In this document: positions 25,873 through 53,691 of the stretch, one piece after another
Layout of the letters: every line of letters starts with the position of its first letter
Numbering within the stretch: the first letter of the stretch is position 1
Source of the DNA: a virus
Lineage: Duplodnaviria; Caudoviricetes
Direction: 5' to 3' (one strand)
Virus record (IMG/VR): IMGVR_UViG_3300021978_000001
Span: 32,001-96,000 of that record
DNA: 64,000 bases
Notes under the pieces: model-generated
Database searches by the model: none
Told to the model about the DNA's origin: nothing
What the model saw: only the letters and a program-made list of their open reading frames with translations
Made by a program: the position numbers and the translations under genes

Positions 25873-26514
25873 TTACAAGGCGCGCGCCACGGACCAGATC
25901 TTTCCCACGAGCATCTTGGTTTGTTCCGGGGTAAGCTCTCCCTCTTTCCACCCGAACACCGCCGTATCCAGCGTGTAGAAGAGCTTGAGCACCTGTGCCA
26001 TATCCAGCTCCTCATGGCGCGCTGCGATGGTCCGCCGCAGGGACGCCTCGACCGCTTCGATTGCACCCTTGAGCTGTTCCTCCTTGAGCTGTTCCGTGGC
26101 AGGAGAAGGCTTATCCAGGCTCGGGGGAGGTTCTGCCTTGTCTGGATCGTAGGAGAAGTGTGCTTTGGGGACGTTGGAGACATGGAACGTGCGTTCAATA
26201 TAGGAGAGCGCCTTCCCGAATGAGAGCGCCTCCTTGTCCTGTACCCAACGAATGCAATCCCTGGACTTGTGGCAGGCGAAGCAATACGTGCCCCCAGACC
26301 CATTGTCATTATCCGGGTACATGCGCGCTGAATACGAGTTATCCTGCCCGTCTCCATGCAATGGACAGGGATACTGAAACTCCCTGTCTACCGTCCTGAC
26401 ATCAATGCCATAATGCGAGAGCACGTCGGCTACCGTGACCTGTGTCTTGATGTTGGCGACGCGGCGGTCCAGGTATTCCTTGACTGCTGGATTCATCTCT
26501 CCCTGGATGGCCAT
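25873..26514 (-). CDS. Stand-alone DnaG-type CHC2 zinc-binding domain protein
   Basis: YPCPLHGDGQDNSYS...TYCFACHKSRDCIRWVQDKEALSFGKALSYI; no Toprim domain in the ORF. Confidence 0.85.
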   Translation of the reverse strand: MAIQGEMNPAVKEYLDRRVANIKTQVTVADVLSHYGIDVRTVDREFQYPCPLHGDGQDNSYSARMYPDNDNGSGGTYCFACHKSRDCIRWVQDKEALSFGKALSYIERTFHVSNVPKAHFSYDPDKAEPPPSLDKPSPATEQLKEEQLKGAIEAVEASLRRTIAARHEELDMAQVLKLFYTLDTAVFGWKEGELTPEQTKMLVGKIWSVARAL

Positions 26515-29510
26515 TACACTTCACCCCCCTGCTCTTCCCACAGAGGGCGGTCACCTGCGTCCTCGTCGTCCTCGTCAAGGCCCGCCAGCACTTCTTCCAT
26601 GGTCGAGGCCGCGTTCAAGGTCGCGCGCGTCTCTCGGGCTTGCTGGAGGCGTTCCTCGCGCGCCTGCTCACGTTCTTCTTGCTGCTGGACCCGGAAGTCC
26701 GTGTCTGCTTGCATCAGCGCTGCGACTTCCTCATCACTGGCGTTCAAGAGCTGCGCGTGGTTCCCGAAATCGACCTCGTTTGCGATGTACTTCGTGTCCC
26801 AATCAATCACCGCGTTGAAAGGCAAGAAGTGCGGGTTGTCCCGGTTCTTGAGGCAGCCGAACTTGGTCCGCGCGCGGGCACGCAGGTCCGTGTCCAGGAA
26901 CGTGGTCGTGATGACATCGCTCGAACGCTCGGCTTCGTTGGCATCTGCGAGCGCCTGCATTTTGTACACACCATCGTTCTTCTCTGCGTCGAGCTTTCCC
27001 TGACGGTTGATCTGCAAGAGACCGAGCAAGGCCAGGCGCTCACCCTGGTTAAAGCTCAAAGCGAGCCGCTTCGCGTCACGCAAGATCGAGTTCAGGTCCG
27101 TGTAATAGTTCCCCGAATACTGCGCAGGCTTCATCAAGGCAAAGTGGTCGATCACGCACATATGCACGGGCACCTGCGCGTGACGAAGCTCCAACGCTTG
27201 TTTGAGCTTCGGGACCGTCATGTCTTCGTCCGGGGAATGCACATACAGCGAACCGTAACCGCGACCACGGTTCTGCTCGATGTCGTCGATGATGTGGTAG
27301 TAAAATTCGAGCTGGTGTTCGGAGATGGGGTTCCCCTCCTCGTCCTCCCCGTCACGCACGAGGCGGTAGGTGAGCTTTGGCCAGCCTTGCCCCTGGAACT
27401 TCGGGTGGTTGCTGTGCATCACGTACATGATGCGTTGGAGCTGATCGACGGGCATCTCCAACGAGAGGTAGTACACGTTCCACTGCAACAGGAACGCCGC
27501 GCGATACACCCAGTTCAATGCGAAGGTGGTGTTATGGGTGATCACATCATTGACCACAAAGCTATGGTGCTCGGGCACGCTCAGGTCATACGTCATCTCC
27601 TGGCCCTTGAGCGTGATGCTTTCGATCTGATCCCACGCCACATCACCCTCCAGGTGCCGCTCAAGCTCCGGGTCGAGCTGCGCGAAAAGCCGCAAGCCGT
27701 CCCCAGTGATGCTCTCGCGTTTTTGTGCTTGGCCCGCGTAACGCCAGGAGCCGGTATGTGAAGTCACGCGCTGCATAGGGTCGAGGTGCGCTATCAAGTC
27801 TGTCGGGAAGATACGATCATCCACCGCGCGCAAGCGAGACTGGAGCACATCGAAGCGCTCTTGCTTACCTGGAACGCGAATACGCTCACAGAAAGCACGC
27901 TTACCCGGGTTTGTGGTGACGCGAACGGTGTAGAAGAGATAGGGTTCTCCCTTGTAGGTAGTCTCCACTTCACGCACCGTCGAGGGGATAGCCAGGCGCA
28001 GCAGCAAACCTTGAACGCCCTGAGCCAGCTCCTTGCTGACCGAGGCATAGGTGATGTCGTTCCGCTTGCTCAAGGAGACACGATCCTCGCGTGCATGATC
28101 TCCTGCGTGACACGACCCATCGGTTGCCCACAGCGCACCCAAGAGCAGTTCGATCTGGGCTTCAGGCAATCCGAACAACTCACCAGGGATGAACTTCGAG
28201 TGGGAATTGGTATCCCACAGCCCCAGCCGCGTGAGAAGGCTCCTCAAAGGAGCTTGAGGACGTGCCGTACATCCTACCCATTTACAGTGCGGTCGTGTAG
28301 AAGAGGTATACTCACGGTACCAATTCTCGATACCGTCTTCGCCGGTAGCATAGCCCTCAGAGTGTCCGAGCGCCTGCAAACACCGAATGTAATTTTGACG
28401 TACCTCAACATTAGCAGCGGCCAACACACAGGTATAATCAGTGATTTGACCATCTCCCAGGAGAAATCCGATCGCTTCGACTTCTGCATCGGTGAAGTCC
28501 TCACGCGGCTCGGGCACGCGCATCACCGAAGGCACTCCGACCCAATCGCCAGCGGACAGCTCTTTAAGCTCGACCCAGGTGCCACCTTGTTTCGAGGACC
28601 ACAGCGGGTGGTTATCCGTAATCTCCAACTCACGGCCACTCTTGAGCTTGACCGTGTAGACATCCCGGACACCATTCTCGACCAAGTGCGAGGCTTGAGC
28701 CTGCACCAGCAGTGGCTCGGCGCCCTCTTGCTTGAGCGCGGTGATCACGGGCTGCGCACCTCCCGCCTGCACGCGATCGTAGAGGTTTTTGGCCGTCTCC
28801 AACTTTTTCGTCGAATGGTCGAAGATTTGGCACGAGCCTTGAAAACACTTCAGCTCTCCTGTGAACGCGGCGTGAGTCCACAGCTCGCCGGGCTTCAAGC
28901 CACGACATACGAGGTCAATGTCTTCGAGGCCGCACAAGCAACCCCATGTCAGCTTATCTGCGGTCAGGACGCGTTGGATCTCGTCACGCGCGGCGTCCGT
29001 GTCTTCGATGATGTCAGCCTTGGTGCGTGCTCCCGATTCGTGATTGATCAAGCCATCGGCTTGCTTCATCAGGTAGAGCATCGCGTCTCGGTACCCCTTG
29101 TAGTGTACCGTCTCACGCCCCTCCTTGATCGCGACCCCATCGAAGAGGATGTCATTGGCCATCTTGAGCGCGAGGTGCATGTCCCCCTGGCGCTGGCTCT
29201 CGACCTCGATGTGAATCAACCGTTGATAATCCGCGCCCGTGTAGGTCACGGGGACCGCCTGAATCTCCTTGAGGCGTTCAGCGGTCGTGAGATCACCCTC
29301 GCGGTCGAGGAAGTCGAGCACCGAGCGGCTCGTGGGAAGCTGACCATATTGGGAAGCAAAGCCCTGGACATAATCATAGATCTGACGGTCCTCCTCGTTC
29401 ATGAACCTCAAGTCCATGGTCGAGACCGTCAGGTAGTTATCTTTGAGTTCTTTCTGGGTGAGCTTGCCATCGACATCGAGCAGGCTTCGCAGGATCTTGG
29501 GGAGGGACAT
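26514..29510 (-). CDS. dnaB: DnaB-like replicative helicase precursor containing one intein
   Basis: GLKPGELWTHAAFTGELK/TTFALN (Walker A split by intein), YLSLEM, CVIDHFALM, LLQINRQG, EAERSSDVI, CLKNRD. Confidence 0.88.
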   Translation of the reverse strand: MSLPKILRSLLDVDGKLTQKELKDNYLTVSTMDLRFMNEEDRQIYDYVQGFASQYGQLPTSRSVLDFLDREGDLTTAERLKEIQAVPVTYTGADYQRLIHIEVESQRQGDMHLALKMANDILFDGVAIKEGRETVHYKGYRDAMLYLMKQADGLINHESGARTKADIIEDTDAARDEIQRVLTADKLTWGCLCGLEDIDLVCRGLKPGELWTHAAFTGELKCFQGSCQIFDHSTKKLETAKNLYDRVQAGGAQPVITALKQEGAEPLLVQAQASHLVENGVRDVYTVKLKSGRELEITDNHPLWSSKQGGTWVELKELSAGDWVGVPSVMRVPEPREDFTDAEVEAIGFLLGDGQITDYTCVLAAANVEVRQNYIRCLQALGHSEGYATGEDGIENWYREYTSSTRPHCKWVGCTARPQAPLRSLLTRLGLWDTNSHSKFIPGELFGLPEAQIELLLGALWATDGSCHAGDHAREDRVSLSKRNDITYASVSKELAQGVQGLLLRLAIPSTVREVETTYKGEPYLFYTVRVTTNPGKRAFCERIRVPGKQERFDVLQSRLRAVDDRIFPTDLIAHLDPMQRVTSHTGSWRYAGQAQKRESITGDGLRLFAQLDPELERHLEGDVAWDQIESITLKGQEMTYDLSVPEHHSFVVNDVITHNTTFALNWVYRAAFLLQWNVYYLSLEMPVDQLQRIMYVMHSNHPKFQGQGWPKLTYRLVRDGEDEEGNPISEHQLEFYYHIIDDIEQNRGRGYGSLYVHSPDEDMTVPKLKQALELRHAQVPVHMCVIDHFALMKPAQYSGNYYTDLNSILRDAKRLALSFNQGERLALLGLLQINRQGKLDAEKNDGVYKMQALADANEAERSSDVITTTFLDTDLRARARTKFGCLKNRDNPHFLPFNAVIDWDTKYIANEVDFGNHAQLLNASDEEVAALMQADTDFRVQQQEEREQAREERLQQARETRATLNAASTMEEVLAGLDEDDEDAGDRPLWEEQGGEV
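27531..28847 (-). mobile_element. Intein (439 aa) with LAGLIDADG homing endonuclease in DnaB P-loop
   Basis: Starts CFQGSCQI after K, ends FVVNDVITHN before T; endonuclease blocks AIGFLLGDG and LGALWATDG. Confidence 0.93.
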
Positions 29511-30483: not shown

Positions 30484-33400
30484 TCAGGTGGAGTCCTGAG
30501 ACTCACGCACGGATTGCAACATCGCATCATAGAGCGCGCGAGTCGGAGAGGACTCTCCAAATATGAAATCCTCTTCCTGACCTTCCTGATTGCCCAGCAA
30601 GCGCTGCCCGAGCGCGCCCTCGATGTATCCCATCTTGCGATCCAGGGTCTTGGCGACGTGGCGATCAATCGTCGCCTCACCGAAGGGACCTTCCGAGATC
30701 ATGTGAATAGCATACACGGATTGGTGCGGTGAGCCAATACGAATCATTCGACCAACGAGCTGAAGATAATCCCCTGCGGACCATGGGAGGTCAAAGAAGA
30801 CCATCACGCGTGCTTCCTGGAGGTTCAAGGCTTCTGCGCCCGCCATGGTCAAGAAGATGAGGTTTGTGCCTTCCGTACCAACAAACGCCTGCCTCCCCGC
30901 TTCACGCTCCTCGCTCGACTCCGCACCTGTGACACGTACCAAGCCTTGCTTGCACTCTGTGCGCGGTTGCCATTCTCCTGTGTGATCTTGAGCGATGCCG
31001 AGTTCGTAACCCTTGTCTGCCAGTAGCTCCTGGAGACGGTCCACCATCTTACGAAAGCGCGTGAAGACAATCACCTTCTCCCCTGCAAGCTCGCCTTCGA
31101 GCATATCCATCAACATCTCGACCTTGTGCGAGATGCCTTCATTGCCGATCAGGTAGAGGTCATTGACGATCTCCTGGCAATAAATGAGCTGCGTGAGGTG
31201 ACTGGTCTCCACCGCAGCATCATCTGCATCAGGGTCAATCAAGCTCGCCTCTGCGACCATCTCGTGAGCCTCGTTCACCGTCAAGAGACCCTCTACCGCG
31301 TCCTGGTAGTGCTTCCACTGGGACCGAGACATCGGCACCACGACTTCCTTCGTGGTGAGCGTCGGGAGTTCCTTGGCGACCGTGTGCTTGGCTCGTCCAA
31401 GGTAGTAGGGGTCGATGCGCTCTCGGAAAAGCTGGACGTGATCTCGGGAGTGTCCTACAATCACGGGCACCTTGCGCCCCCTCCCGATGGGCTGCATCTT
31501 GGTGACACAGAAGTTGCGCATGAAGCCCTTCTCCGAGCTGAAGAGCCCAGGCACGACCACCGAGTAGATGCCAAACCCTTCGAGGAGGTTGTTCTTGATA
31601 AGGGTTGCCGTGATGCCATAGGCGCGCCACGCGTGCTCTGCGAGTCTCTTGGCGGCGGTATGTGTCGCAGATGAGGGAGACTTCACCGCAGCACAGTTAG
31701 AGACCAGGGTGCCTCCTGCGAAGTAATTATGATTCCCCTCTACCTCCAAATCATACACATATTTTTCAGGACGTGCAGGTTCCCATGCCTCTACAGAAAC
31801 CACATGATCAATCACCGTAGCATCAAGAGAAGGCATATCAGGAGACACATAGGGATCATGGTCGGGAAACTTGTACTCAACACCAGGCAAGGCGCCAGGG
31901 AGGAGGTCCAAGAAGGCGCGCGCTGCTTCATCCGGGAGATAAATCACATAGAAGTCTCCTGTGCGTCCCTTACGCGTCTTGACTTGAGCATCTACGCCCC
32001 ACTTCCAACGCAACCATCCAGCCAAAAGCTCATTTTCTTCTCGCGTAAAACCATGCGTACTCAACTCGATCTGGTAAACGCGACGACCCTTTTTACGCTC
32101 TCTCACGGACAGCGAACCATCGTCGGCATACCAAACAGCCAACCCCAATGGCTCGATCTTATCCAACCACGCGGTAGTGATCTGCTTTCGATTTTTATAA
32201 AACCCGGCTGTCTTGATCGTAGCGGTGATATGCGCATTCGCATGAGTATTGAAACACAAGGTCGAGGAACCTCCTTCGTAGCCAGAAGGCTCTTCACGTA
32301 GAGAAGAGGTACCCAGGGTACCCAAAACCTTCTGTTTCCACTCCATATAGTCGGACTGAGCTATGCCTTGCCTGAAAGCAACGGAAGGACACGCACGTTG
32401 AGGGTTGGAGAGAGAGGCATCTCCCAGTAATCCCCCATAAATGATCTGCTGTTGCTCTGTTGTTGGAGGCTTGCTGTTGAAATGGAGAACTTGGTCACCA
32501 GGCTTGAGCTTGCTGGCTCGAACCTTTGTGCCATCAGGACGATAAATCTTGTGCGTAGACGTACAGCGCACGCTGTTACCATGCGCAAAGGTGATTTTAA
32601 GCATTTTGTGCTTTTTGGTCACTTTGTTGCGCCACCAATTCACCACACGTCTAGGCTCTGTTTTACCTGTCTCAAAATTATAACTCATCACTTCTACATC
32701 TAACTTTTGGCACACAATCTTGCCGATCAGTTCCGTTGTACCATCCGCGAGCAGCACAGGAGTGTGATAATCAAAGCATTCATCCATCCACAAGGCGTAC
32801 TGGCGCCCGTCAAGGTGCTTCTTGAGCGTGCGGTAGTCGATGCGCATGCGCGGGTAGTTCAAGATCAGGACGCTGGGGTTCTCGGGGGACCACTCCTCGA
32901 AGAACTCATCATAGATCTTCTTGCGCTTGTCCGGGCCGCCATCGACCACCACGGTATCCACCCCGTTCGTGAACTTGTGAAACTCACCTGCCCATTGACG
33001 CATGGCGCTGGTGGTTGTGATCACGATCGGGATCAGGTTGGGTTCCCTGGTCCACATGTAGCACTGTGAGGAGATACACTCGGCGGTGTTATGACTGACC
33101 ACACCGTTGGCGACGAACCAGTGGCGGGGATCATCAACCTCGATGTCGAAAACCTCTGCTTCTCCCTCGGTGAGAGATACCACGGGATCGTAGAAGTAGC
33201 ACGACTCTTGGAGCGCGTTCAGATTTTGCCACGCAGACGTCCCCGTAAGCCCATGCTGCGCGCACACATCGAGGTAGTGCTCTAAAAATGCGTAGGAAGG
33301 GTTACGACCCCGGTTTCGGATGTTATTGAGCGTGTTGACGAAAGAGCAACCGAATTGCTTGAGGCCACTGCCCTTTCTATTCCCATTCCCCCCCGAACGC

Positions 33401-34662
33401 GACGTGACCGCTTTGAGGCGCGCTCGCAAGGGTTCGATCAAGGACTTGCAGCAGGGTATAACATCGTGATTCGGGTTCATCGAACGGTCGAGAGCGCTCT
33501 CCAAGGCGTCTCTCTTCCTGGAGGACACGAAGCCAATCTTGTCACGAAAGGCACGAGCATCTTGGCCGAAGATCGTCAGGCGCCAGTACGTGTTGTGTTC
33601 ATAATTCTTGACCACTTTCTCGCTACGGTTACTGACAATACCAAAGCGCGTGAGCATGATTTGGACCACGCGCCCAAGCTCTTCGGATGCAGTTGAAAAT
33701 TCAATACCACCACAGGGAAGCACGTGACCTTCACCTTCAAACAGCCCTCTCAGGAACTCGACGTTGCTTTCTCGGGTAGAACAGAGGATGAAATTTGGGA
33801 CTTGTTTATCCGCTGCTAGACCTTTATTCAAGCCGTTTTGCTTGAGGAAGTCGATAATTTGCACACTAGATACTAACTTATCTTTTACATCTGAAAGATC
33901 ATATCCAAATAAAGTAGAGGTAAGATGTCGAATATCTTCGTGGATCTCATGATTACGCTCTGGACATTGGGATATACTCAGGGTGTAATCGTTATTGAAC
34001 CAACCTTCCCCTACCACGTAACCGATCCAACGCGCAAAATCACCTGTTACCTTCGTAGGTAATTTATGAGATTTTGCCCAAGGCGATAAAGCTATATCGG
34101 TATCCAGAGTCGGTTCTTCAAGGGGAAAATCCATCTCACGTCTCTCGACGCAGATGTAATCCCCTTCTCGGAGATCTCGCATTTCTACCCATTGATGTTT
34201 GCAATCCCTCCACACGAGAAGCGGGTGGACTCTCGAACCCTCCACCTCGAAGTTGTAACGTGTACGCATCTTGATGGTCGGCTTTACCCCACCGTAATAA
34301 AAATTCTTGACAGGCAGTTTCTCTTCGTTCACGAGAACATGCCAATCCTGATCAACGGGCGCGAACGTGTCGGGTTCCATTCCCGACCAGTCATGCATAT
34401 CACCGATCTTGGTAAGGCCGTAAGTAGTTGTTACTAAAGAGTTTTTGGTCAGGCACTTGCCGAGCCCCGTATCGTCACCAACCACGAAGCGCTTGCGCAT
34501 CAGGAGGTGCATGACCATCTGTTTCTGGTAGTGACGCAAGGCAAACTCGACCTGCTCGCCGTTGGATTTGGTGATGTGCGTGACCAGGCGATCACAGGGG
34601 GGTAGGTCGATGGTCTCTGCTGCGCGGATGCGCTTGAGCTTCTCGTAGGTCTTATCTGACAT
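30484..34662 (-). CDS. SNF2-family helicase/ATPase precursor containing two inteins
   Basis: LRHYQ, GDDTGLGK/T, MDE/CA, GITATLIKNNL, KVIVFTRF, AGAEALNLQEA, DLPWSAGDYLQLVGRMIRIG. Confidence 0.92.
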   Translation of the reverse strand: MSDKTYEKLKRIRAAETIDLPPCDRLVTHITKSNGEQVEFALRHYQKQMVMHLLMRKRFVVGDDTGLGKCLTKNSLVTTTYGLTKIGDMHDWSGMEPDTFAPVDQDWHVLVNEEKLPVKNFYYGGVKPTIKMRTRYNFEVEGSRVHPLLVWRDCKHQWVEMRDLREGDYICVERREMDFPLEEPTLDTDIALSPWAKSHKLPTKVTGDFARWIGYVVGEGWFNNDYTLSISQCPERNHEIHEDIRHLTSTLFGYDLSDVKDKLVSSVQIIDFLKQNGLNKGLAADKQVPNFILCSTRESNVEFLRGLFEGEGHVLPCGGIEFSTASEELGRVVQIMLTRFGIVSNRSEKVVKNYEHNTYWRLTIFGQDARAFRDKIGFVSSRKRDALESALDRSMNPNHDVIPCCKSLIEPLRARLKAVTSRSGGNGNRKGSGLKQFGCSFVNTLNNIRNRGRNPSYAFLEHYLDVCAQHGLTGTSAWQNLNALQESCYFYDPVVSLTEGEAEVFDIEVDDPRHWFVANGVVSHNTAECISSQCYMWTREPNLIPIVITTTSAMRQWAGEFHKFTNGVDTVVVDGGPDKRKKIYDEFFEEWSPENPSVLILNYPRMRIDYRTLKKHLDGRQYALWMDECFDYHTPVLLADGTTELIGKIVCQKLDVEVMSYNFETGKTEPRRVVNWWRNKVTKKHKMLKITFAHGNSVRCTSTHKIYRPDGTKVRASKLKPGDQVLHFNSKPPTTEQQQIIYGGLLGDASLSNPQRACPSVAFRQGIAQSDYMEWKQKVLGTLGTSSLREEPSGYEGGSSTLCFNTHANAHITATIKTAGFYKNRKQITTAWLDKIEPLGLAVWYADDGSLSVRERKKGRRVYQIELSTHGFTREENELLAGWLRWKWGVDAQVKTRKGRTGDFYVIYLPDEAARAFLDLLPGALPGVEYKFPDHDPYVSPDMPSLDATVIDHVVSVEAWEPARPEKYVYDLEVEGNHNYFAGGTLVSNCAAVKSPSSATHTAAKRLAEHAWRAYGITATLIKNNLLEGFGIYSVVVPGLFSSEKGFMRNFCVTKMQPIGRGRKVPVIVGHSRDHVQLFRERIDPYYLGRAKHTVAKELPTLTTKEVVVPMSRSQWKHYQDAVEGLLTVNEAHEMVAEASLIDPDADDAAVETSHLTQLIYCQEIVNDLYLIGNEGISHKVEMLMDMLEGELAGEKVIVFTRFRKMVDRLQELLADKGYELGIAQDHTGEWQPRTECKQGLVRVTGAESSEEREAGRQAFVGTEGTNLIFLTMAGAEALNLQEARVMVFFDLPWSAGDYLQLVGRMIRIGSPHQSVYAIHMISEGPFGEATIDRHVAKTLDRKMGYIEGALGQRLLGNQEGQEEDFIFGESSPTRALYDAMLQSVRESQDST
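31696..32778 (-). mobile_element. Intein (361 aa) with LAGLIDADG endonuclease at SNF2 Walker B
   Basis: Starts CFDYHTPVLLADG after DE, ends YDLEVEGNHNYFAGGTLVSN before C; GGLLGDAS and AVWYADDGS blocks. Confidence 0.92.
33088..34455 (-). mobile_element. Intein (456 aa) with LAGLIDADG endonuclease at SNF2 Walker A
   Basis: Starts CLTKNSLV after GK, ends FDIEVDDPRHWFVANGVVSHN before T; GYVVGEG and FLRGLFEGEG blocks. Confidence 0.93.
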
Positions 34663-34709: not shown

Positions 34710-35009
34710 TCAGCCCATCAACAGCTCGTACACATACATCATCAACTGGCGGCGATGTTCGCTCGCGGGAGGGTTGTTGATCAGCGCGAGCATCTCGCCT
34801 TCGGTGACGCCATGTGCGCGTGCTACCTCGCGGAGCTTCCGGTCACACAGGCGCGTGATCGCAGGCTCCATCTCCTTGATGAGCCATTCCCGGTACTCCT
34901 CGAAGGCGTCGCGCTTGGGGCCAGTATGGGGTCGTCTGTTACGCATGATTGCCTCGACCGCTTTCTGCGCTGCTTCGAGGGGCATCTCTTTATGATTTGG
35001 ATTGCTCAT
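34710..35009 (-). CDS. Hypothetical protein (99 aa)
   Basis: Starts 8 nt after the upstream stop; helical, charged. Confidence 0.65.
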   Translation of the reverse strand: MSNPNHKEMPLEAAQKAVEAIMRNRRPHTGPKRDAFEEYREWLIKEMEPAITRLCDRKLREVARAHGVTEGEMLALINNPPASEHRRQLMMYVYELLMG

Positions 35010-35017: not shown

Positions 35018-35665
35018 TCAGTTGAAAGAAAGGCTCAAGCCAAAGATGGGCATCAACTCCCAGGTACCGTACTCGATAGCAGCACCACCGAAGAAATCGA
35101 GGTTCTTGGTGATGTCTGCCCCGAGGCTGATTCCACCATGTTGGAACCCGGTCTGCGCCTGGACATGTAGCATACGCCAGAAGAACGGCTCGAACACGAG
35201 CGCAGGGTCAAACATCGAGGGGAGGTCTTCGCCAAGGTTTGCGGGCAACCAGGTAACCCCCACCTTGACCCGCAAGCGCAAGCCCCATTCCGGTTCCACG
35301 GGAGGTTTGGGTTTTGTGATCGCGACGTTGTTTTCAGTCTCGAAACCGAGCTTGAACTCACACCACTCGATCTTGCCCGTGAGCTTATCATCCGTGAAGA
35401 CCTGACCGTCCTGGGTGATGACGATCTTTTGCTCGTCAAAGGTCAGCCGCATGCGCCCCTGTTGAGCTTCGCGCACCAGGCAGTTGTGGTGCTGGAGGAT
35501 GCGCGCGATCTCTGCGGCATCGGCTTCCTTGAGGCACTTGTATCCGGGAGGACACTCTGCCTCGCGCTCCAGACGCGCGAGGCGGCGCTCTTCGGGCTGG
35601 CTGTGCGTGATCTGAGGCATCAGGAGCACAAACGCGAGGCTCAAGAAGGCGATGATTCTGGACAT
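35018..35665 (-). CDS. Secreted / outer-membrane beta-rich protein
   Basis: Signal peptide MSRIIAFLSLAFVLLMPQITHS; alternating beta-strand C-terminus ending IFGLSLSFN; RBS AAGGAG. Confidence 0.6.
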   Translation of the reverse strand: MSRIIAFLSLAFVLLMPQITHSQPEERRLARLEREAECPPGYKCLKEADAAEIARILQHHNCLVREAQQGRMRLTFDEQKIVITQDGQVFTDDKLTGKIEWCEFKLGFETENNVAITKPKPPVEPEWGLRLRVKVGVTWLPANLGEDLPSMFDPALVFEPFFWRMLHVQAQTGFQHGGISLGADITKNLDFFGGAAIEYGTWELMPIFGLSLSFN

Positions 35666-35687
35666 GTTCGGCTCCTTTTTATGCGAA

Positions 35688-36227
35688 TCAAGAGAGCTTA
35701 TCAATGAGATCCTGTGAGACCTCTTTGGGGGCTTCGATGACGTGAATCTCGACCTTGCCAGGTTGCGTCAGGATCACGCGCTCGACGTCAGTATCCTTTA
35801 CACCCGTAGGAAGTCGGAGCTTCTTTGTCTCACCTTCTACCGTCGAGACTTCGAGGACGTTGCGATCACGGAAGGGATTTTTCTTACGATCCACGACCGT
35901 GATCTCACGCTGGGTAAACCCATGCTCATCAGGCTCACCCACTTCGATAAGCTCTCCCTGGGTATCCTTTCGCTTCGGTGGGATCTTGTTGACCTTTACC
36001 TCAAGCTCTGGATCTTTGTCAGCTTCATCATGACCAAAGAGCCACCCGAGGATACCTCCCACATTGAAAGCATCCCCGAACCCGAGCAAGAGCAGCACGA
36101 CCGCAACCACGATCACGAGGGTCGCGATCACGAGAGCCAAAGGATAGCGCAAGGTCCAGTTCCATGCAACCATGGCGCCGGACTTGATGCGCTCCCAAAG
36201 AGAGGGAGGTGTGTGTTCCTGAGTCAT
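35688..36227 (-). CDS. Inner-membrane-anchored protein (N-terminal TM plus soluble domain)
   Basis: Hydrophobic LALVIATLVIVVAVVLLLLGF; ATGA-coupled to the upstream gene. Confidence 0.7.
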   Translation of the reverse strand: MTQEHTPPSLWERIKSGAMVAWNWTLRYPLALVIATLVIVVAVVLLLLGFGDAFNVGGILGWLFGHDEADKDPELEVKVNKIPPKRKDTQGELIEVGEPDEHGFTQREITVVDRKKNPFRDRNVLEVSTVEGETKKLRLPTGVKDTDVERVILTQPGKVEIHVIEAPKEVSQDLIDKLS

Positions 36228-36673
36228 GTCAAACGCTCCTCGCCTTCGCGGGTGAAGGGGTCGTCGATTTCCGTGATACGTGATTCTCGTGTCGCGTCAA
36301 GGCGTCGCTTGAGCGCCTCTTTCAATGCATCTGCATCAGGGCTGCTGTCGGGCGCTGTTTGAGGCGCTGGAGCCGCTGGAGGCGTCGGAGTTGTTTGAGG
36401 CGGCGCGGGAAGAGCAACAGGGAGACCCGCTTTCCCGGTGAGCCGCTGACGCAAAATGTCCGACAACGGTCCGGTGAACTTCTTGCCGAAGTTATACGCG
36501 AACAGGACAAGCAAGATTTCGTACATGGTGTTGGGGACTTGCTTGGCCACGCACCAAAACCAGATATGTGTTCCAAACACAATCCAGCACATGACACGGC
36601 CCATGCTCAGTTCCCCCTGTTCGATGATCACCGAACCCCAGCGAACATTGGCAATTTTTTCTCGGATGGTCAT
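36224..36673 (-). CDS. Holin-like two-TM membrane protein with Pro/Ala-rich and charged C-tail
   Basis: TM1 VMCWIVFGTHIWFWCV, TM2 YEILLVLFAYNFGKK; ATGA overlap with the kinase stop. Confidence 0.5.
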   Translation of the reverse strand: MTIREKIANVRWGSVIIEQGELSMGRVMCWIVFGTHIWFWCVAKQVPNTMYEILLVLFAYNFGKKFTGPLSDILRQRLTGKAGLPVALPAPPQTTPTPPAAPAPQTAPDSSPDADALKEALKRRLDATRESRITEIDDPFTREGEERLT

Positions 36674-37839
36674 GGCTCTTCCTTCGAGTCAGGGTTTGTG
36701 CGATAAGGGAGATGCAAATGCATGGTTGTTCCGATATTCAAAGCGCTCTCGACTTCGATCGAACCACCCGCCTCTCTAATGAACTGGTACACAAAGTAAC
36801 TACCAAGGCCGGAGCCTGCTTCGGGTCCTCGCGTCGTGAAATACGGAGCAAAGACCTGTCGCAAGGTCGCATCATCCATACCACAGCCGTTGTCCGCGAA
36901 AGAGAGCACGATGCAGTTGGCGTGGTGGATCTTATCACATTCGTGCGTGTGGATCGTGATGCACGCACCCTCTTCCTTGTGCTTGGTCGCACGGATCGAG
37001 TTGTCGAAGAGGTTGGTCAAGATCTGATACAGGCGTGGTTGAGATACATTCACGTATTTCCCTTGAGCAGCCTCGTTCAAGACCTCGTAGCGCCCTACAT
37101 AACGCTTGGTAGGCTCCACAAAACGCATGCTCTTGGTGTAGCTGTCGATCGCATGCCCGAGGTCGATGCGCGCCCCCGCTTCTTGGGACAGCTCTTTCAT
37201 CGGCGCCGTCATGTCGTTCAAGATCAGTGAAATCTTGGTGAGGGCCTCTTGTGCACCTTCGAGATGCTCTTCGAGTTCACCCGTCATCGTAATCAGGTCG
37301 ATGTATCCGCGCGCGGTCGCCAGGGGCGTCTTGAGTTCGTGGTTCAATCCAAAGAGCATGACCTGGAGCCTCTCTGCCCACTTGCGCTCTTCCTGTGCCT
37401 GAATCATGGTGTTGTCAAGGGCTTCCTGGATGAACATGAACATCGTCGTACCAAGTGCCTCGTGCCGGTAGTACCGAATCAGGTAGGGCTCATCATGCCC
37501 CTTGAGATAAATATCCCCGAACACCTTGGGCTGGGTAAACTCGCGCAAAGAAAAAAGTGCGTCGAGGATGCCATGGCTATCCTCGCGCACCAGGTCGTAC
37601 AGGTTCATCGAGAGAAGATCAGACTGGACGCAATTCAAGGTATCGAGCGCCTTGGTGTTCCCATGCAGAAGGTTACCCTCGAAATCCGTCTGGTACACAA
37701 TCGCTGCGTTATCTCTGTAACTCGCGAGGCGCCCGAGCGTATTTGCATGGTCAAGAAGCCGACGCCGCTCATGCTGCGTTTTGAATATGCTCACCCACTT
37801 GCGCCAGAAAGCCTGGAGCCGTGAAATCATCCTTCTCAT
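36670..37839 (-). CDS. PAS-domain sensor histidine kinase (cytoplasmic)
   Basis: PAS (VYQTDFEGNLLHGNTKA...), H-box LNHELKTPL, N-box ILTNLFDNS, G1 FADNGCGM, F-box FAPYFTT, G2 GSGLGS; GGAGG RBS at 37839. Confidence 0.93.
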   Translation of the reverse strand: MRRMISRLQAFWRKWVSIFKTQHERRRLLDHANTLGRLASYRDNAAIVYQTDFEGNLLHGNTKALDTLNCVQSDLLSMNLYDLVREDSHGILDALFSLREFTQPKVFGDIYLKGHDEPYLIRYYRHEALGTTMFMFIQEALDNTMIQAQEERKWAERLQVMLFGLNHELKTPLATARGYIDLITMTGELEEHLEGAQEALTKISLILNDMTAPMKELSQEAGARIDLGHAIDSYTKSMRFVEPTKRYVGRYEVLNEAAQGKYVNVSQPRLYQILTNLFDNSIRATKHKEEGACITIHTHECDKIHHANCIVLSFADNGCGMDDATLRQVFAPYFTTRGPEAGSGLGSYFVYQFIREAGGSIEVESALNIGTTMHLHLPYRTNPDSKEEP

Positions 37840-38152
37840 ACACTACCTCCCCCGTCCCGATCGCGGCGCGGTATTCGGGGCTTTGCGTGTGGCAGCCTGT
37901 AAGAAAGATGACCGGACACTCGAAGCCTTCCTCGCGCATCCACTCATAAAACTCGACTCCCCCTGTTCCGTTGATAATCAGGTCAATCACCACAAGGTCA
38001 GGGAGCGCCTCATCACTGAGGAGATGTTCCTTGGCCAGACGCACCGCGTGTGCTTTTTTTGTGCATACCACGACCTGATAAGTCGAACGCAGCGAAAGCA
38101 TGAGCATCCGTGCCATGGCCTCATCATCTTCGACAATCAAGACCCTTCTCAT
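37769..38152 (-). CDS. Single-domain response regulator (REC only)
   Basis: VLIVEDD, PDLVVIDL (phospho-Asp), VIFLTG, YEK; no output domain; TGATG coupling with the upstream gene. Confidence 0.9.
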   Translation of the reverse strand: MRRVLIVEDDEAMARMLMLSLRSTYQVVVCTKKAHAVRLAKEHLLSDEALPDLVVIDLIINGTGGVEFYEWMREEGFECPVIFLTGCHTQSPEYRAAIGTGEVVYEKDDFTAPGFLAQVGEHIQNAA

Positions 38153-38625
38153 CACTTGTGCTCCTCGCCTTTGACCTTGACCTCGCCCTGGGAGGAGGGA
38201 AGATCTTTCTTGTACTGCTTCTCTACTGCTTCTCCCGCCTTCTTGTCAGCGGTCAAGTATACATTATTCACGAAGACCGTCACCAACGTCGAGAGGATCA
38301 TCAAGAGCACCGGCCACAGCCACTTCAACGTGCGGATGGAACCATCCATGCGTTGAAGAATTGCCGTGTTCTCCTTGACCGCTTCCTGGACTTGCTTCAA
38401 GTCATCATCATTGCTGTCCAACGCCTCTTCCACCTTGTGGAGCTTCCCCGTCATCGCGATCTGGGCATCAGACACTTCATCGAGCCCGCGCGAAAACGAA
38501 TCCAGTCGCTTGAAGATTTGATCATCACGCGTCTTACGGATAGAGCGCTCCACGGTGTTTTGCTCACGGTCAGCCCGCTGGCGCTCTTCCAGGCGCACGA
38601 TACGTTCACGCAGATCGTCTGCCAT
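38152..38625 (-). CDS. Coiled-coil protein with C-terminal TM (XhlA/holin-accessory-like)
   Basis: LRERIVRLEERQ...coiled coil...LKWLWPVLLMILSTLVTVFV: the architecture typical of phage XhlA-like proteins. Confidence 0.55.
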   Translation of the reverse strand: MADDLRERIVRLEERQRADREQNTVERSIRKTRDDQIFKRLDSFSRGLDEVSDAQIAMTGKLHKVEEALDSNDDDLKQVQEAVKENTAILQRMDGSIRTLKWLWPVLLMILSTLVTVFVNNVYLTADKKAGEAVEKQYKKDLPSSQGEVKVKGEEHK

Positions 38626-38789
38626 CAGCCCCCTCCCTCACGCCGCAACAGCGCGCGAACTTGCTGGATCTCAGCCTGGAGCATGTCGGTCATTCCTTCA
38701 TGCGATGCTTTCACCTGGAGGTGCTTGAGACGCCCTTTGGCCCAACGCACGGCCTTCGCGCCTTTAAGCTGTTCTGCCTTGATTATCAT
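38625..38789 (-). CDS. Small basic protein (54 aa), absent from the ORF track
   Basis: MIIKAEQLKGAKAVRWAKGRLKHLQVKASHEGMTDMLQAEIQQVRALLRREGGG; GGAGG RBS and TGATG overlap with the next gene. Confidence 0.7.
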   Translation of the reverse strand: MIIKAEQLKGAKAVRWAKGRLKHLQVKASHEGMTDMLQAEIQQVRALLRREGGG

Positions 38790-38814: not shown

Positions 38815-41800
38815 TCAGGGGCATACACAAGGGTCAACACCAGGCAACGAGGGGTCCCTCGCGGGGAATACGTCCACCTGATCAGGTGTGATCAAACGAC
38901 GCGCGCCTTTCACCAGGGGCCTTCCTTCAACACGGTAACGGTCTACCGCATTGCGTCCTTCACCCAGACCAGTGGGGTGCGTCTGTAGTACGAGGTCTAC
39001 AAACTCTTTACTGAGCGCGCCCGTGGAAACATCAAGATCCTTGCCAAGTTGCAGCCCTGTCGCGACCACGATCTGAAGCTCTTCACCATACGTGGCCTCA
39101 CGGTCACTGGTCGTGACAAGCTCCTTTTGTGTGCGCACGAGAAGCGCGACTCCGAGCATCACACCCCCATGCATCGAGAGGTCTTGCGTGCGAGGGCTCG
39201 TGACATAAGACAGATCCTTACTCACGCGTGGTCCTGTCAAGGCGAAGGCGCCTCCTGGGTTGCGTCCCGACGCCACGGCTGCCGTGCCTCCACGGTAGGT
39301 GCGGTACAGGTTAAAGCTCGGGTCGTAGCCCGTGAGCGCTGCCGACCCTGCGGCGGTACCATCCGAGACCAGAAGCGCGCCCTCCATGAAGGATTTGGAC
39401 AGGGGATAATCCTGACGGTAGTCTCCAGGGACATCCATCGAGAGCGAAGGCACCCAGAAGCGCTCATACGCCTCCCCAAGACCTTCCGCGAGGAATTGCG
39501 CGTCTGAGGTCAAAAGACCCATGGGGAGCCTCTCTGTGGCTCCCAGCAGCGTCTCTCCGACCACCCTCGCAATAGGTGTGGTCCCTGCGGGTGCAGGGTG
39601 AGCACGCACGCGCGCCGGGCGCGGAGCATCCGTCAAGTCCGTAAACGGGTAGTCCGCCAACGTGAGGTAGCCGACATCTGTATACGAGCCGGGGACCACG
39701 GGTCCAGCGATGGCGCCTGTACCGAGCGTGGTCGCGAAAGGCATCGCCGCCAGGATCTCGACGACGGCGCCATTTTCGACGCGTGCATCTGCGGGGTCCG
39801 TAAACGGCGTGGCCAGTTGCAGGACCTCGGTAGGCGTCTCTGCGGTACGCTTTGGCACGTAGTCTACAAACTCCACCGAAGCGGTGTCTGTCGTCGAGAT
39901 GGGCATCGTCCCATAAATCGCGCCCTGATAAGGCACGCGTGTCGAGACCACCGAGAGCTGATCACCTGCTTCGCTCGGACCAGGCACGAACACCTGATAA
40001 CTTTGACCTGCGACACCTGCGGCGGCGAGGCGGTGAATACGCGTGTACTCTGCCTGCCAATCATCAAAGAAGAACGCCGCGAACTCGAACACCAGCGGGG
40101 TGTTCTCCAGGTTTACCGTCAAGTAGCTCTGGTCGAGGACATCTTCTGGGATCACAAACGTGTTGTCTGCGGTGATGATCAAGCTGCGACGCTCACCATC
40201 CTCCCGCAAGAGATTATCCCGTCCAATACCTGCATCAGTACGATAAGGTGCAGTGACGGTCGGGGCAAAGTTCGAGACACCAGGCGAGATGTTGTAGAAG
40301 TCGTCCTGGTGGTAGATCGCAAAGAGACGCGCGATACCATAGTTAGCGGGGATCTCGATGCCGCGCACACCCCCTTGGTTGTAGTAGCGACACACGAGCG
40401 CGTTCGTGCCTCCAGGTCCTCCGCCGACCGCCGAAAGGTCAGGGTAGGTTCCGAAGTCCGAGCTGGTCAAGTTGACCGGATCGTATACCGCGACCAGACG
40501 TTGCTGGACAAACGGCGCGTTGACGTTCTGTGATCCCGAGAGCAAGAGATGGTTGATCCCGTAAGCAGGCGCGGTAGAGTTCGCGCTCCCTGCGGCCATG
40601 CTGGTCACGAAGGGCACATCATGGCGACCGAGACCACCACGAATCTCACGAGGGATCAACAAGGAGTCCGAAGCAACTCCGAGGTTGAACAGGCTCGTCA
40701 CATCCGTGTAGCTCCGCGCAGAGGGAACCGGCTGGGGATCGAGACGCATCGAGATGTTGCGCATCGGCTGGTAAATCAGCGTCTTGCTGCCAGGGTCCAC
40801 ATAAGCCTCGCCCCAGACTGTCTCGGTGTTGAACAGCGTCTCACCATCGCGCGGCACGAACTCATCATGACGCTTGTGAGGGAACGCCGATGCAGGCAGC
40901 GCAGGTGAGCGCTTGACTGTAGCAGCAGGCGAAGAGACCACGTTCTCGAAGTCATCCTCACGCAAGTAGTTGGAAGGGGTCGCAGCATCCAGATCCACAT
41001 ACAATCCACGCTCGGGAGCGCGCGCCAAACCGGAGAGCGGATGGTACAACAAATCGTAAGACAGGTAAAGCGCCGTGTCTGTTCCCACTGCTGCGGTCGA
41101 TGCAAGAGCGATGAAGACCTGATCATCCTGCTCCGAGCAGGCTTCGAGGTACAAGCCCCATGTACGGTTGGTCGTCGTGGCGGTGTCGAACACCGGCTCG
41201 GTTCCATCTGGGTTCGTGACCACGAGGTAACCATTGGCATCCACACCCACCACCTTGAACGCCCCATGGTTCTCGGGTTGCGTCGCGGTAGGATCATCTC
41301 CAGGCGTGAGCAAGAGGTAAGCGCCCGCGTCCACGATGGTCGCGGCATCGGCGGTGAAGTCCAGACCCACGTTTACCGAGGAACCACTCGCGGCTCCAGG
41401 CACCACAGCGAGCGTGGTGTTCGTGAATGCGACATCTGCCTGACCCGAACTCGCGACCGCGAGGTCTGTCAAGGGTGTCCCCAATACCACAAAGTGTGGG
41501 TCCGCATCCCCTTGTGCGATGGTCAACGCTTCTTGCTTGGCGGGGTCTGCGCTCTCGGGGTCCGTGTCGCCAAACCACAGCTTGAAAGTCGCGTGATCGG
41601 TGTCATCATACTCGAAGGGGTGTACGAAACGCACCTTCTCATCGTTTGCCGAAGAAAAGGTGTTGCGGTACTGGTCGAGCGCGATCGAGATCACATCCCC
41701 GGTGTTCCAATCTTCCGCATTGGCGGCGTCCTGGCGAAAAATATCCACGGCAGGGTTAAAGGGGAGATCTGTCGCATCTTGTGTCGCGCCGTTGGTCCCG

Positions 41801-43251
41801 AGCACCACGAGGTTTTCAGGCTGCAAGGCACACGCGTCCGAGAAGATCTTGCGAAACCCATCAGGCGCGTCCCCCTTGATCTGGAAGTCTGGCGCGACCG
41901 CCGCAGCGCCGATGTAGTCTACCTGGAAATGACGCGTGCCCTTGACACCCGCCGAAGATTTCTTCCAGGCGGTAGACAGTTCCCCCTTGACCAACTTGTT
42001 GAAGTTGTGCGCGAGCAAGCTGTTGAAGTCCACCGGACCGAGGCTCACCATGTGGCGAAGGTCATAGATGTCATCAGGCGTGATCTGGTCCGCGAACAAC
42101 CCGAGCGGGTGCCCCGTCACGAACTCCACGGTTGCACCTGTATCATGGTTGCTCTCTGCGGTGTTCTTGGAGCCACGCTCGCTCAAGGTGATGGTGTTTC
42201 CGACATACGAGCTGTATGTCATGATCTCACCATCGACCCGCAAGAGTCCGCCTGCGGGGTCGAACGTGGTCGCGCTCTGCGCTGTATCCACCGCGAGCGT
42301 CGTGGCGTCTGTGTCCACATCAGCCGTGAGCGTGATGGTAGGCAACACGGTCGCCTGGCTGCGGTCCGTCATATCAGGGAAGCGGTTGAATGCTCCTGCT
42401 TGCTGGAGCGCTGACCACGACTGCGTGGAGCGGCGAAAGACAAAGCACACGGGGATCGCGTACACGTACCCATCCACGGTCCCGAGGAGCCCGTTGGCAC
42501 CATCACCATCACCCGCACGCCACAAGCCGGGGTCACCGAGATTCTCACCCTGGTTGGTGAAGGTGTAGAGCGGGTTTACCGATGTCGTGGGTGTTGCGAG
42601 GGTACCCTGTGCCTTGACCTGAGCGTTGAAGCCAAAAGGATTGAGCGCGGGGTTCACCGCAGATACCACGCGCAAGCGATACTGGATCTGTACCCGTTCT
42701 GTCGTCTCGATACCGATAGCAGGGTCGATGAAATCCATGGTGGGGTTGGTCCCACCATACTCCACGTTCCCGTAAGCCCATACGGTGTCTTGCGAAGGCT
42801 TGTTGGCCGTGCCATCAGGAGAGAGCTGCGCTTTCCATACTTCCAGGAAAACAAAGTTGACATCGGCGTCTGTCGTGGTTGCCTGGGGAGGTGGCAACGT
42901 GATTGCGTTACGCGAGTCCGTCGAGTTGGTCCCGAGCAACGGAATCAACCATCCGTTGACGTTTGCCCAAACCACATCACCCTCGGTATCCGAGAGGTTC
43001 TTGCCGAGCCAAAAGAGGTTGGAGGCTTGACGCGCGGTCTGGTAGTCATCGCGCGCACGAACCGCATCCCCCACAAACCCCGAAGGGATGTTGGCAGAGA
43101 GCAACGCCTGACGCGCGCTCTCGGACACCTGAGAGATCAGGTTAAGCTCCGAGTCGAGCGGGGGCCTGTTCTGTTGGAACACCGTCGTCACAAAGTTTCG
43201 TGCGGCGGGGGTCAGCGTCCGGGAAACGCCATCTCCGAGGTGGTCACTCAT
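38815..43251 (-). CDS. Large virion structural / tail protein (1478 aa; N-terminus paralogous to 50341-52926)
   Basis: VFQQNRPPLDSELNL (DUF4815/DUF6519-like N-terminus); acidic, Thr/Gly-rich beta composition; in the structural operon. Confidence 0.7.
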   Translation of the reverse strand: MSDHLGDGVSRTLTPAARNFVTTVFQQNRPPLDSELNLISQVSESARQALLSANIPSGFVGDAVRARDDYQTARQASNLFWLGKNLSDTEGDVVWANVNGWLIPLLGTNSTDSRNAITLPPPQATTTDADVNFVFLEVWKAQLSPDGTANKPSQDTVWAYGNVEYGGTNPTMDFIDPAIGIETTERVQIQYRLRVVSAVNPALNPFGFNAQVKAQGTLATPTTSVNPLYTFTNQGENLGDPGLWRAGDGDGANGLLGTVDGYVYAIPVCFVFRRSTQSWSALQQAGAFNRFPDMTDRSQATVLPTITLTADVDTDATTLAVDTAQSATTFDPAGGLLRVDGEIMTYSSYVGNTITLSERGSKNTAESNHDTGATVEFVTGHPLGLFADQITPDDIYDLRHMVSLGPVDFNSLLAHNFNKLVKGELSTAWKKSSAGVKGTRHFQVDYIGAAAVAPDFQIKGDAPDGFRKIFSDACALQPENLVVLGTNGATQDATDLPFNPAVDIFRQDAANAEDWNTGDVISIALDQYRNTFSSANDEKVRFVHPFEYDDTDHATFKLWFGDTDPESADPAKQEALTIAQGDADPHFVVLGTPLTDLAVASSGQADVAFTNTTLAVVPGAASGSSVNVGLDFTADAATIVDAGAYLLLTPGDDPTATQPENHGAFKVVGVDANGYLVVTNPDGTEPVFDTATTTNRTWGLYLEACSEQDDQVFIALASTAAVGTDTALYLSYDLLYHPLSGLARAPERGLYVDLDAATPSNYLREDDFENVVSSPAATVKRSPALPASAFPHKRHDEFVPRDGETLFNTETVWGEAYVDPGSKTLIYQPMRNISMRLDPQPVPSARSYTDVTSLFNLGVASDSLLIPREIRGGLGRHDVPFVTSMAAGSANSTAPAYGINHLLLSGSQNVNAPFVQQRLVAVYDPVNLTSSDFGTYPDLSAVGGGPGGTNALVCRYYNQGGVRGIEIPANYGIARLFAIYHQDDFYNISPGVSNFAPTVTAPYRTDAGIGRDNLLREDGERRSLIITADNTFVIPEDVLDQSYLTVNLENTPLVFEFAAFFFDDWQAEYTRIHRLAAAGVAGQSYQVFVPGPSEAGDQLSVVSTRVPYQGAIYGTMPISTTDTASVEFVDYVPKRTAETPTEVLQLATPFTDPADARVENGAVVEILAAMPFATTLGTGAIAGPVVPGSYTDVGYLTLADYPFTDLTDAPRPARVRAHPAPAGTTPIARVVGETLLGATERLPMGLLTSDAQFLAEGLGEAYERFWVPSLSMDVPGDYRQDYPLSKSFMEGALLVSDGTAAGSAALTGYDPSFNLYRTYRGGTAAVASGRNPGGAFALTGPRVSKDLSYVTSPRTQDLSMHGGVMLGVALLVRTQKELVTTSDREATYGEELQIVVATGLQLGKDLDVSTGALSKEFVDLVLQTHPTGLGEGRNAVDRYRVEGRPLVKGARRLITPDQVDVFPARDPSLPGVDPCVCP

Positions 43252-52971: not shown

Positions 52972-53631
52972 TCAAAACGTTAGCCGCCACGTAATTTGCA
53001 ACCGAGCCGTCGCGGGCTTGTTGATCACGGGGAACGTCAGATAGTTGCACAAGGTATCCTTGTTGCGCAAGTCTTCTGTGTCATCATACGGCCCGTTGGC
53101 GGGAGACACGGGGTTGGTCACCCCGAGGTCTTCCGAAATGTCTCCTCCCAACAATCCCATCTCGACCAGGGGACCCACCGCTTCCGACTGCGCGAAGGTG
53201 GTGGTAAGGTCGATGATGTTCGTGGGGTAAGACACCGGCGAGCCTCCCGAGTCCACGAAGGTCGTGGTCGAGAAGGTCTTTCTCGACAGCTCGGAGTAGA
53301 GCGCGCGTTGGGTGTTGGTCTCTGCGGGAGGGTTTTGCAAATCCCAACCCACATCTCCTGTCCCGATGGCCAGGGCATAGATGCCGTGGCGAGGCCCCAG
53401 AGGGTCGAGGCACAGGCGCGCGAGCAAGATGCTCATGTCCAGAGTCACGATGTTATGCGTCGCGACCTCTTCGACCCTGCCATCATCATGCAAGAGCGTG
53501 AAGAACACGTCCCCTTGAATGTGCTGACGACGACGGCCCTGGTAGCGATCACGATAAAGGGCGCCCATGGCCTGGCTTACTTCCGAGGCCATGCGGTGGA
53601 GTTTCCGGTAGAAATCGTTAAACAATGGCAT
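52972..53631 (-). CDS. Tail-collar / baseplate fibre-attachment-like protein
   Basis: NIVT...YALAIGTGD...PPAETNTQRALYSELSRK...TTTFAQSEAVGPLVEMGLLG...TFPVINKP...ITWRLTF pattern. Confidence 0.65.
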   Translation of the reverse strand: MPLFNDFYRKLHRMASEVSQAMGALYRDRYQGRRRQHIQGDVFFTLLHDDGRVEEVATHNIVTLDMSILLARLCLDPLGPRHGIYALAIGTGDVGWDLQNPPAETNTQRALYSELSRKTFSTTTFVDSGGSPVSYPTNIIDLTTTFAQSEAVGPLVEMGLLGGDISEDLGVTNPVSPANGPYDDTEDLRNKDTLCNYLTFPVINKPATARLQITWRLTF

Positions 53632-53676: not shown

Positions 53677-53691
53677 CTTACAAGTGAATTA
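53677..53691 (-). promoter_or_regulatory. Putative late promoter TAAT-N3-CTTGTAAG
   Basis: Minus strand TAATTCACTTGTAAG ahead of the 15-kb structural gene run. Confidence 0.6.

Follow-up and report, generated by a model that had tools for sequence, protein, structure and literature searches.

What might a complete two-component signalling system do in a phage genome in which its genes are packed together with genes for membrane and secreted proteins? This question is raised by a virus of the Caudoviricetes (IMG/VR record IMGVR_UViG_3300021978_000001), a complete virus record of 437,490 bp with direct terminal repeats, which comes from a hydrothermal-vent metagenome and has partial matches in seawater and marine metagenomes. 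The window, i.e. the whole stretch of 64,000 nucleotides (nt) analysed here, corresponds to bases 32001-96000 of this record. It bears a cassette of eight densely packed minus-strand genes, named here A, B, RR (response regulator), HK (histidine kinase), E, F, G and H. The original prediction for this locus was a phosphorelay that tunes lysis from within a lysis cassette. We found that the signalling system is real, conserved and experimentally tractable. Our explanation of the whole, to which we give somewhat less than even confidence, is a phage-specific B-RR-HK signalling module with an envelope-directed output that we infer. The domains themselves are ordinary; what is new is their lineage, a signature insert in the kinase, the co-inherited protein B and the setting beside the proteins F and G.

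RR (37769..38152, minus strand, as all genes of the cassette) encodes a response regulator of 127 amino acids (aa), which has nothing outside its REC domain, lacks an output domain and is the sole REC domain in the genome. It was matched by the Pfam model Response_reg with 47.6 bits (cut-off 30.2), and the residues E8-D9-D10, the phospho-acceptor D57, T85 and K107 were invariant in an alignment of 7 regulators. HK (36670..37839) encodes a soluble kinase of 389 aa, in which no hydrophobic or transmembrane segment was found. Its PAS-like N-terminus is followed by HisKA, bearing H167, and HATPase_c, with 33.0 and 74.0 bits against Pfam gathering scores of 26.9 and 26.4, respectively. The boxes typical of such kinases were invariant or nearly so in an alignment of 18 kinases (H167; N276/N280; D316/G318/G320; F330-P332-Y333; G342/G344/G346). 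The catalytic motifs first noted in the window are hence present in both signalling proteins and kept across their orthologues. Judged from these motifs, RR and HK very probably form a complete two-component pair, real and functional.

In the domain order, with a PAS-like N-terminus before DHp and CA, in the D/D/D/T/K residues and in the adjacent, coupled genes, the pair resembles class I HisKA kinases with a PAS domain and REC proteins of the CheY, Spo0F, DivK or CpdR type. It differs from bacterial HisKA/REC pairs in being encoded by a lytic-type huge phage and in belonging to a remote clade of its own. It also differs from the bacterial kinases that were matched in the HK insert, an invariant C-x3-HH-x2-C cluster (C301, H305, H306 and C309; 36913..36939), which is situated in the hairpin that links the N box to G1 in the ATP-binding domain and was found in 17/17 clade kinases and in 0/103 bacterial matches. 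The cluster suggests an added input, putatively metal or redox. The regulator has peculiarities of its own, with K-D after beta5 in place of the usual K-P, an invariant Cys30 and an invariant Cys87-His88, the latter beside the switch Thr85.

The N-terminus of HK had been labelled a PAS domain, which holds at the level of the family and not for the window sequence taken alone, as discussed below. PF00989 (PAS) was matched by 8 of 13 orthologous HK N-termini (best 5.9e-6) and PAS_9 by 5 of them, and the language-model neighbours of the HK N-terminus were all PAS clusters (0.95-0.96). An hhalign comparison of the kinase N-termini with bacterial pre-H-box segments gave a probability of 5.7, with a heterogeneous template alignment.

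The kinase belongs to a phage clade comprising 17 homologues (41-95% identity, 267-853 bits, 305-386 aa), several of them on contigs of 47-373 kb. After this clade the scores fall to 82 bits or less, where the matches are bacterial kinases aligned over the catalytic half only. HK and RR stayed far from every cut-off of the NCBIfam equivalogs, the PhoR model giving 53.4 bits (cut-off 334) and the PhoB model 43.6 bits (cut-off 296). The contexts of eight kinase homologues and of two IMG/VR loci were examined, which, with one duplicate, represent nine distinct contigs. In all nine, which come from different samples and studies, the order tail-(A)-B-RR-HK-(E)-F-G-H-SNF2-x-DnaB-primase-x-PolA is kept, and kinase identity among the contigs sharing this order is 41-56%. 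Near-identical proteins (95-97%) occur on another contig. The RR-HK pair beside membrane genes therefore recurs in nine large phage contigs, as the original prediction had proposed to verify by synteny, and the dense packing of genes for membrane and secreted proteins around a phage-encoded kinase and its REC-only partner is conserved in related large phages. A kinase search of IMG/VR for related loci gave none, a search with F gave only 2 loci, and three distant F members used as queries gave none. Among GenBank phages, blastn and tblastn detected no relative of the region, of F or of G, and the kinase matches had less than 30% identity and lay in unannotated, mostly bacterial-looking records. 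These relationships point to a long evolution of the HK-RR pair inside a clade of huge marine phages.

The kinase pair is accompanied by B (38152..38625), a tail-anchored membrane protein of 157 aa. Placed in the inner membrane in our reading, it shows in its alignments a conserved motif near the N-terminus, then a variable coiled coil, the likewise conserved G-S-I-K-T-x-K-W-x-W-P motif, a C-terminal transmembrane segment and a short charged tail. Residues R8, R11, E13, E14, A18, E26, S28, R30, T32, D35, Q36, G95 and P105 are invariant, and K101, W102 and W104 nearly so. B was found in 9/9 HK-bearing contigs, and it is missing together with RR and HK from two more remote relatives, L014 (38 kb) and L018 (113 kb). 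These two have the same tail-to-polymerase frame, in which E, F-G and H were found with our own hidden Markov models (HMMs); the HMMs built here for B, RR and HK gave no match in either of them. The profile of F, searched against 1.84 billion representatives, gave 127 clusters, far above the size of the kinase clade, and a further F-G pair has other neighbours, among which no kinase is annotated.

From this distribution we take B-RR-HK to be a single unit of gain or loss in a sub-clade of huge marine phages, which came to lie between E and the last tail gene, and E-F-G-H to be an older and wider module, which exists without the kinase in two relatives. Because B, RR and HK are present or absent together, B would work with the kinase pair; this is the best available evidence, and we give a functional attachment of B to RR-HK an even chance. 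As E-F-G-H occurs without the kinase in relatives, the action of E-F-G would be independent of the relay. Small lineage-specific genes seem to have entered the E-F-G-H module preferentially at its junctions, which would be hot spots of insertion. Such inserts were seen between G and H (L004:10857-11438, 193 aa; L013:5067-5423, 118 aa), between E and F as an opposite-strand open reading frame (ORF) of 148 aa (L009:9397-9843, minus strand), and between E and F-G (L018:6605-6880, 91 aa).

The gene order and all the coordinates and junctions noted before (TGATG, 71-nt overlap, ATGA, 22 nt) were reproduced exactly. A and B are joined by TGATG (A stop 38625-38627, B ATG 38623-38625), as are B and RR (RR ATG 38150-38152; the ORF list extends RR to a GTG at 38155). 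RR and HK overlap by 71 nt (RR stop 37769, HK ATG 37839), with the strong Shine-Dalgarno sequence GGGGGAGG 6 nt 5' of the HK start. This overlap measures 20-74 nt in most related loci, and in L009 the RR gene was left uncalled in the annotation owing to a 74-nt overlap with the HK gene. ATGA junctions link HK to E (36670-36673) and E to F (36224-36227). The G start (ATG 35665) lies 22 nt past the F stop and is preceded by AAGGAG. The eighth gene, H, which the earlier gene list did not contain, starts 8 nt beyond G. A scan of the locus for sigma-70 promoters and terminators did no better than chance, and one metatranscriptome from the source sample contained almost none of the locus's sequence words. 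A separate candidate promoter motif, TAAT-N3-CTTGTAAG, has 3 copies in the window against 0.05 expected, at 5941-5955 (+), 10560-10574 (+) and 53677-53691 (-).

Proteins A, B, E, F, G and H, in the window as well as in their orthologues, were matched by no model of Pfam, PHROGs, NCBIfam or PADLOC; PADLOC gave only marginal matches of the REC and HATPase type. F (35688..36227) is a transmembrane-anchored protein of 179 aa, as delineated by alignment and profile search. It is composed of a basic N-tail, the transmembrane segment, an invariant glycine-zipper helix (FNVGGxLGxLFG) and a domain of ~115 aa with the motifs NPFRD and LPxGVxDTD. No usable Atlas neighbours were found for F. A 4114-aa calpain-like match to the F profile was rejected as a repeat artefact.

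G (35018..35665) encodes a secreted beta-rich protein of 215 aa with a Sec signal peptide, a conserved AxA-type signal-peptidase-I site, four conserved Cys and an invariant C-terminal SLSFN. No lipobox was found in G: 15/15 G sequences have the AxA-type site and no +1 Cys. The AlphaFold model (pLDDT 85.8) comprises a helical/beta N-domain, which bears the four conserved Cys and would be disulfide-bonded, and, at residues 124-215, a beta-meander or barrel. The best fold matches of this second part were designed small barrels (Z 9.9 and 5.9), and the natural ones were OmpW, OmpA, KdgM, NspA and TamA (Z ~4.4-5.3). Clusters of AFDB, BFVD and Atlas named after outer-membrane proteins (OMPs) recur among the weak matches, TM-scores in AFDB and Atlas being below 0.45, and a Foldseek search of G against the PDB yielded no match with an E-value lower than 0.008. 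The strands are strictly amphipathic, with a face composition that fits a membrane barrel or a soluble barrel, and the C-terminal SLSFN is like a beta-signal, yet it ends in N. G is probably exported and an outer-membrane protein, as far as the model goes; a soluble periplasmic barrel is a possible alternative.

In ~ten clusters at 50% identity, F and G are fused into single proteins of 350-410 aa. The fusion members are L013:3976-5052, L014:7001-8062, L018:7001-8086, P0130, P0143, P0153, P0164, P0171, P0193, P0199, P0200, P0211 and P0255. The F/G junction has neither a stop codon nor a plausible internal start in L013 and L018; in L014 an internal ATG after GGGAG could yield a separate G. The fusions retain a mid-chain hydrophobic stretch resembling a signal peptide, together with the AxA site. 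Either the soluble domain of F would be cytoplasmic and the internal segment would export G, or the short hydrophobic stretch would pass the translocon and the chain would bridge both membranes. Because they are fused in ~ten lineages, we consider F and G to be one functional unit.

Taken together, HK would read an intracellular cue via its PAS domain, and possibly via the Cys2His2 cluster, autophosphorylate on H167 and pass the phosphate to D57 of RR. RR must work by protein contact because it has no output domain. Its most economical partner would be the co-inherited and translationally coupled B, and the target would be the adjacent E-F-G. The state of the infected cell would then set the time of an envelope event, which may be lysis, delayed lysis, superinfection exclusion or a remodelling of the envelope. 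That the relay output acts on the neighbouring envelope module is put forward tentatively, as a proposition clearly short of even.

Several points weigh against this explanation. None of our results connects HK or RR with B, E, F or G, either by physical contact or in function. A complex prediction of HK and RR with B(1-105) as partner gave a score of 0.01, for which controls were not run and which carries no weight either way. Since the whole tail-to-polymerase region is collinear among these phages, the kept adjacency does not by itself demonstrate coupling. E is missing from L007 and L008, which both keep the kinase. The kinase-less state is known from two contigs, both in the sub-group with fused F-G, and the event, which is unrooted, may have been a gain or a loss. 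The N-terminus of the window HK is sub-threshold for PAS (E=0.031, 14.7 bits against a cut-off of 22.6). The AlphaFold model of F has low confidence (pLDDT 58.7) and is too poor for a fold search, its soluble part being predicted as beta-rich. A positive-inside count over 55 F homologues gave K+R ~2.9 on either flank and so favours neither topology. The motif TAAT-N3-CTTGTAAG has no copy in or adjoining the cassette; the nearest one on the same strand (53677-53691) lies 15 kb upstream, ahead of the gene at 52972-53631.

The main rival explanation is that the pair hijacks host signalling, HK cross-phosphorylating host regulators or RR draining a host phosphorelay, in which case the neighbouring genes would be incidental. 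REC-only regulators are commonly phosphate sinks or relay elements, which would suit such a role. HK has no transmembrane segment and so would not need a membrane partner, and the collinearity of the tail-to-polymerase genes in all relatives likewise favours this rival. Auxiliary genes phoR, phoB, nifL and narL have been reported from phages; they cluster with bacterial references and are interpreted as directed at the host, mimicking its regulons (PMC10987575). The pair studied here resembles them in that they are two-component genes on phage genomes. It differs in scoring far under the cut-offs of the PhoR and PhoB models and in forming an orphan lineage kept with a phage membrane protein. 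HK and RR are remote from the bacterial families, by bit score and by every NCBIfam cut-off, which fits a private cognate pair better than mimicry, and B is gained or lost along with them. We regard the hijack of host signalling as possible, albeit rather unlikely.

Of REC domains, a survey covering 224 jumbo phages takes up just a divergent one, which never occurs in histidine-kinase systems (PMC7824862). In the literature we found no description of a phage-lineage-specific kinase-regulator pair conserved with a membrane partner. Phage two-component genes are mostly seen as recent borrowings from the host, from which the HK-RR pair differs. If the relay controls an envelope event, large lytic phages would take decisions through phosphotransfer signalling of their own, and the relay would offer a way into what the F-G family does, whose 127 clusters are unannotated. 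Even if the output is directed at the host, the pair would offer a clean system for studying what a virus senses inside its host.

The second rival is the reading first proposed, in which the eight genes constitute a lysis cassette, with E as the holin, B as an XhlA-like protein and F/G as a spanin-like pair, and in which the phosphorelay tunes lysis timing or inhibition. Here the individual labels fared differently. E (36224..36673) is a protein of 149 aa with two hydrophobic segments, KK after the second of them, and a variable, Pro-rich and charged C-tail. This small transmembrane form with a charged C-terminus, which corresponds to class II holins, is what remains of the holin-like label; it is a common form, not specific to holins. 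Six E orthologues had no match to a holin family in Pfam or PHROGs, and E has no endolysin neighbour. The XhlA-like label of B found no support: no Pfam match to XhlA (PF10779) was found up to E 0.1, and a six-frame search of the genome with PF10779 gave only 11.8 bits elsewhere, the Bacillus subtilis control being positive. The likeness of B to XhlA is one of outline only, i.e. an N-terminal coiled coil and a C-terminal transmembrane segment.

Like the spanins (lambda Rz/Rz1 and T1 gp11), the inner-membrane-anchored F and the outer-membrane-directed G are adjacent and sometimes fused. Unlike them, G, which lacks a lipobox, would have a barrel for its anchor, F is not predicted to be a coiled coil, albeit in a low-confidence model, and the F-G fusions keep a mid-chain segment like a signal peptide, a misfit for a simple chain spanning the periplasm. 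A version in which the B-RR-HK phosphorelay gates E-F-G, F-G being spanin-like with a beta-barrel anchor replacing the lipid, and in which redox, metal or energy sensing sets the moment of the envelope breach, seems quite unlikely to us. If such a gated envelope device is real, it would be the first case of a virus with a two-component 'lysis clock'.

Two regulated lysis systems invite comparison. In T4 lysis inhibition, which we take to rest on the holin T and the antiholins RI and RIII, T would presumably share with F the outline of one transmembrane segment and a large C-terminal domain, with G as a secreted partner, and in either case phage-encoded membrane and periplasmic proteins would set the time of lysis upon a signal. 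There is no relation in sequence or fold, however, and T4 uses direct protein sensing without phosphotransfer. The staphylococcal two-component system LytSR controls the holin- and antiholin-like cid/lrg genes. The present locus is like it in having two-component genes near a small holin-like membrane protein. It is unlike it in that LytS is polytopic and LytR is a DNA-binding transcription regulator, whereas here HK is soluble and RR has no DNA-binding domain.

The position of the cassette after late-looking tail genes, with no evident terminator between, would suit a lysis function. No muralytic gene was found in or near the cassette. In the whole genome the lysis enzyme models PF00959 and PF01510 gave no match; the search with PF00182 carries no weight, as the control genomes gave no match with it. 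Two SLT matches were obtained, one in a 1254-aa virion-type protein and one in a 235-aa protein (290376-291083 of the record). The latter is the only endolysin-like gene, lies ~220 kb from the cassette and has no membrane-protein neighbour; no canonical holin-endolysin-spanin cassette was found elsewhere in the genome, which speaks for the lysis reading. Against it, no protein of the cassette matched a holin, XhlA or spanin family, E is missing in two kinase-bearing relatives, and the presence of E-F-G-H in L014 and L018 without the kinase means that a lysis function would need no relay. The name of lysis cassette is not supported. We consider the lysis reading unlikely, and we are equally doubtful that the relay output is specifically lysis timing.

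A third rival makes E-F-G a module for superinfection exclusion or envelope remodelling, which B-RR-HK would switch according to cell state. The topologies of E and F can be likened to those of T4 Imm and Sp, which we take to be a two-transmembrane protein and a membrane-anchored periplasmic protein, respectively. G, exported and OMP-like, is comparable to several phage exclusion and conversion proteins, and huge phages, whose infection cycles are long, would profit from exclusion. Searches by sequence and by fold gave no match to an exclusion protein, and this reading is very unlikely. Finally, a chimeric assembly, or a bacterial operon lately acquired by one phage, both of which the original prediction had raised, has nothing but the metagenomic origin of the record in its favour and is refuted for practical purposes by the order kept in nine independent contigs, the 95-97% identical proteins on another contig, the homogeneous base composition, with GC content and GC content at third codon positions (GC3) of the cassette genes resembling those of their neighbours, and the lack of any close bacterial homologue of a pair that belongs to a phage clade.

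The cassette lies within a co-directional minus-strand array that extends from ~63 kb down to 17 kb of the window and in which the cassette is preceded by large virion proteins, weakly matched by tail-fibre, tail-spike and baseplate models, and followed by an SNF2 helicase with two inteins, DnaB with an intein, primase and a family A polymerase. The upstream boundary is a 1478-aa tail-fibre-like structural protein (38815..43251), of which an orthologue of 1413-1474 aa is found at the same place in all related loci. A tail-like gene does stand upstream, as originally described; its designation as the last tail gene relies on weak PHROG tail-fibre and baseplate matches (E ~1e-5). The first cassette gene, A (38625..38789), is an ORF for a basic protein of 54 aa, with GGAGGAG upstream. 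It is variably present, with orthologues in L004, L006, L013 and L017 and not in L007, L008 and L009. The last gene, H (34710..35009), encodes a soluble helical protein of 99 aa between G and SNF2, with orthologues in all loci, including L014 and L018. The SNF2 gene (30484..34662; PHROG helicase and LAGLIDADG matches), which follows H in all related loci, forms the downstream boundary and opens the replication module.

Elsewhere in the genome, beyond the window, a cluster on the minus strand at G000:C1:289359-293257 (L019:1360-5258) contains the sole lipobox ORF of the genome (292754-293257), whose product (MKHLLLITLLLSLSAC...) is Pro-/Cys-rich past the lipid Cys and which overlaps a 160-aa ECF-sigma-like gene. 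About 1.2 kb past the latter lies the 235-aa SLT gene and, after 24 nt, a 330-aa sigma-like gene. This cluster of lipobox, SLT and sigma-like genes may represent another locus concerned with the envelope or with lysis.

Far from the cassette, at G000:C1:181381-181806 (L002), HATPase_c gave a further match (66.6 bits), in a 655-aa frame that probably encodes a GHKL-type protein (topoisomerase, MutL or Hsp90) and not a kinase. The intein content of the genes next to the cassette differs between close relatives. SNF2 has 558-571 aa and no intein in most relatives; L007 and L013 have a single intein in a protein of 932-1018 aa, whereas the SNF2 of the window bears two and measures 1392 aa. DnaB (26514-29510 in the window) has an intein in L004, L006 and L008 and none in L007, L014 and L018, and in L018 an intein match was obtained for PolA as well.

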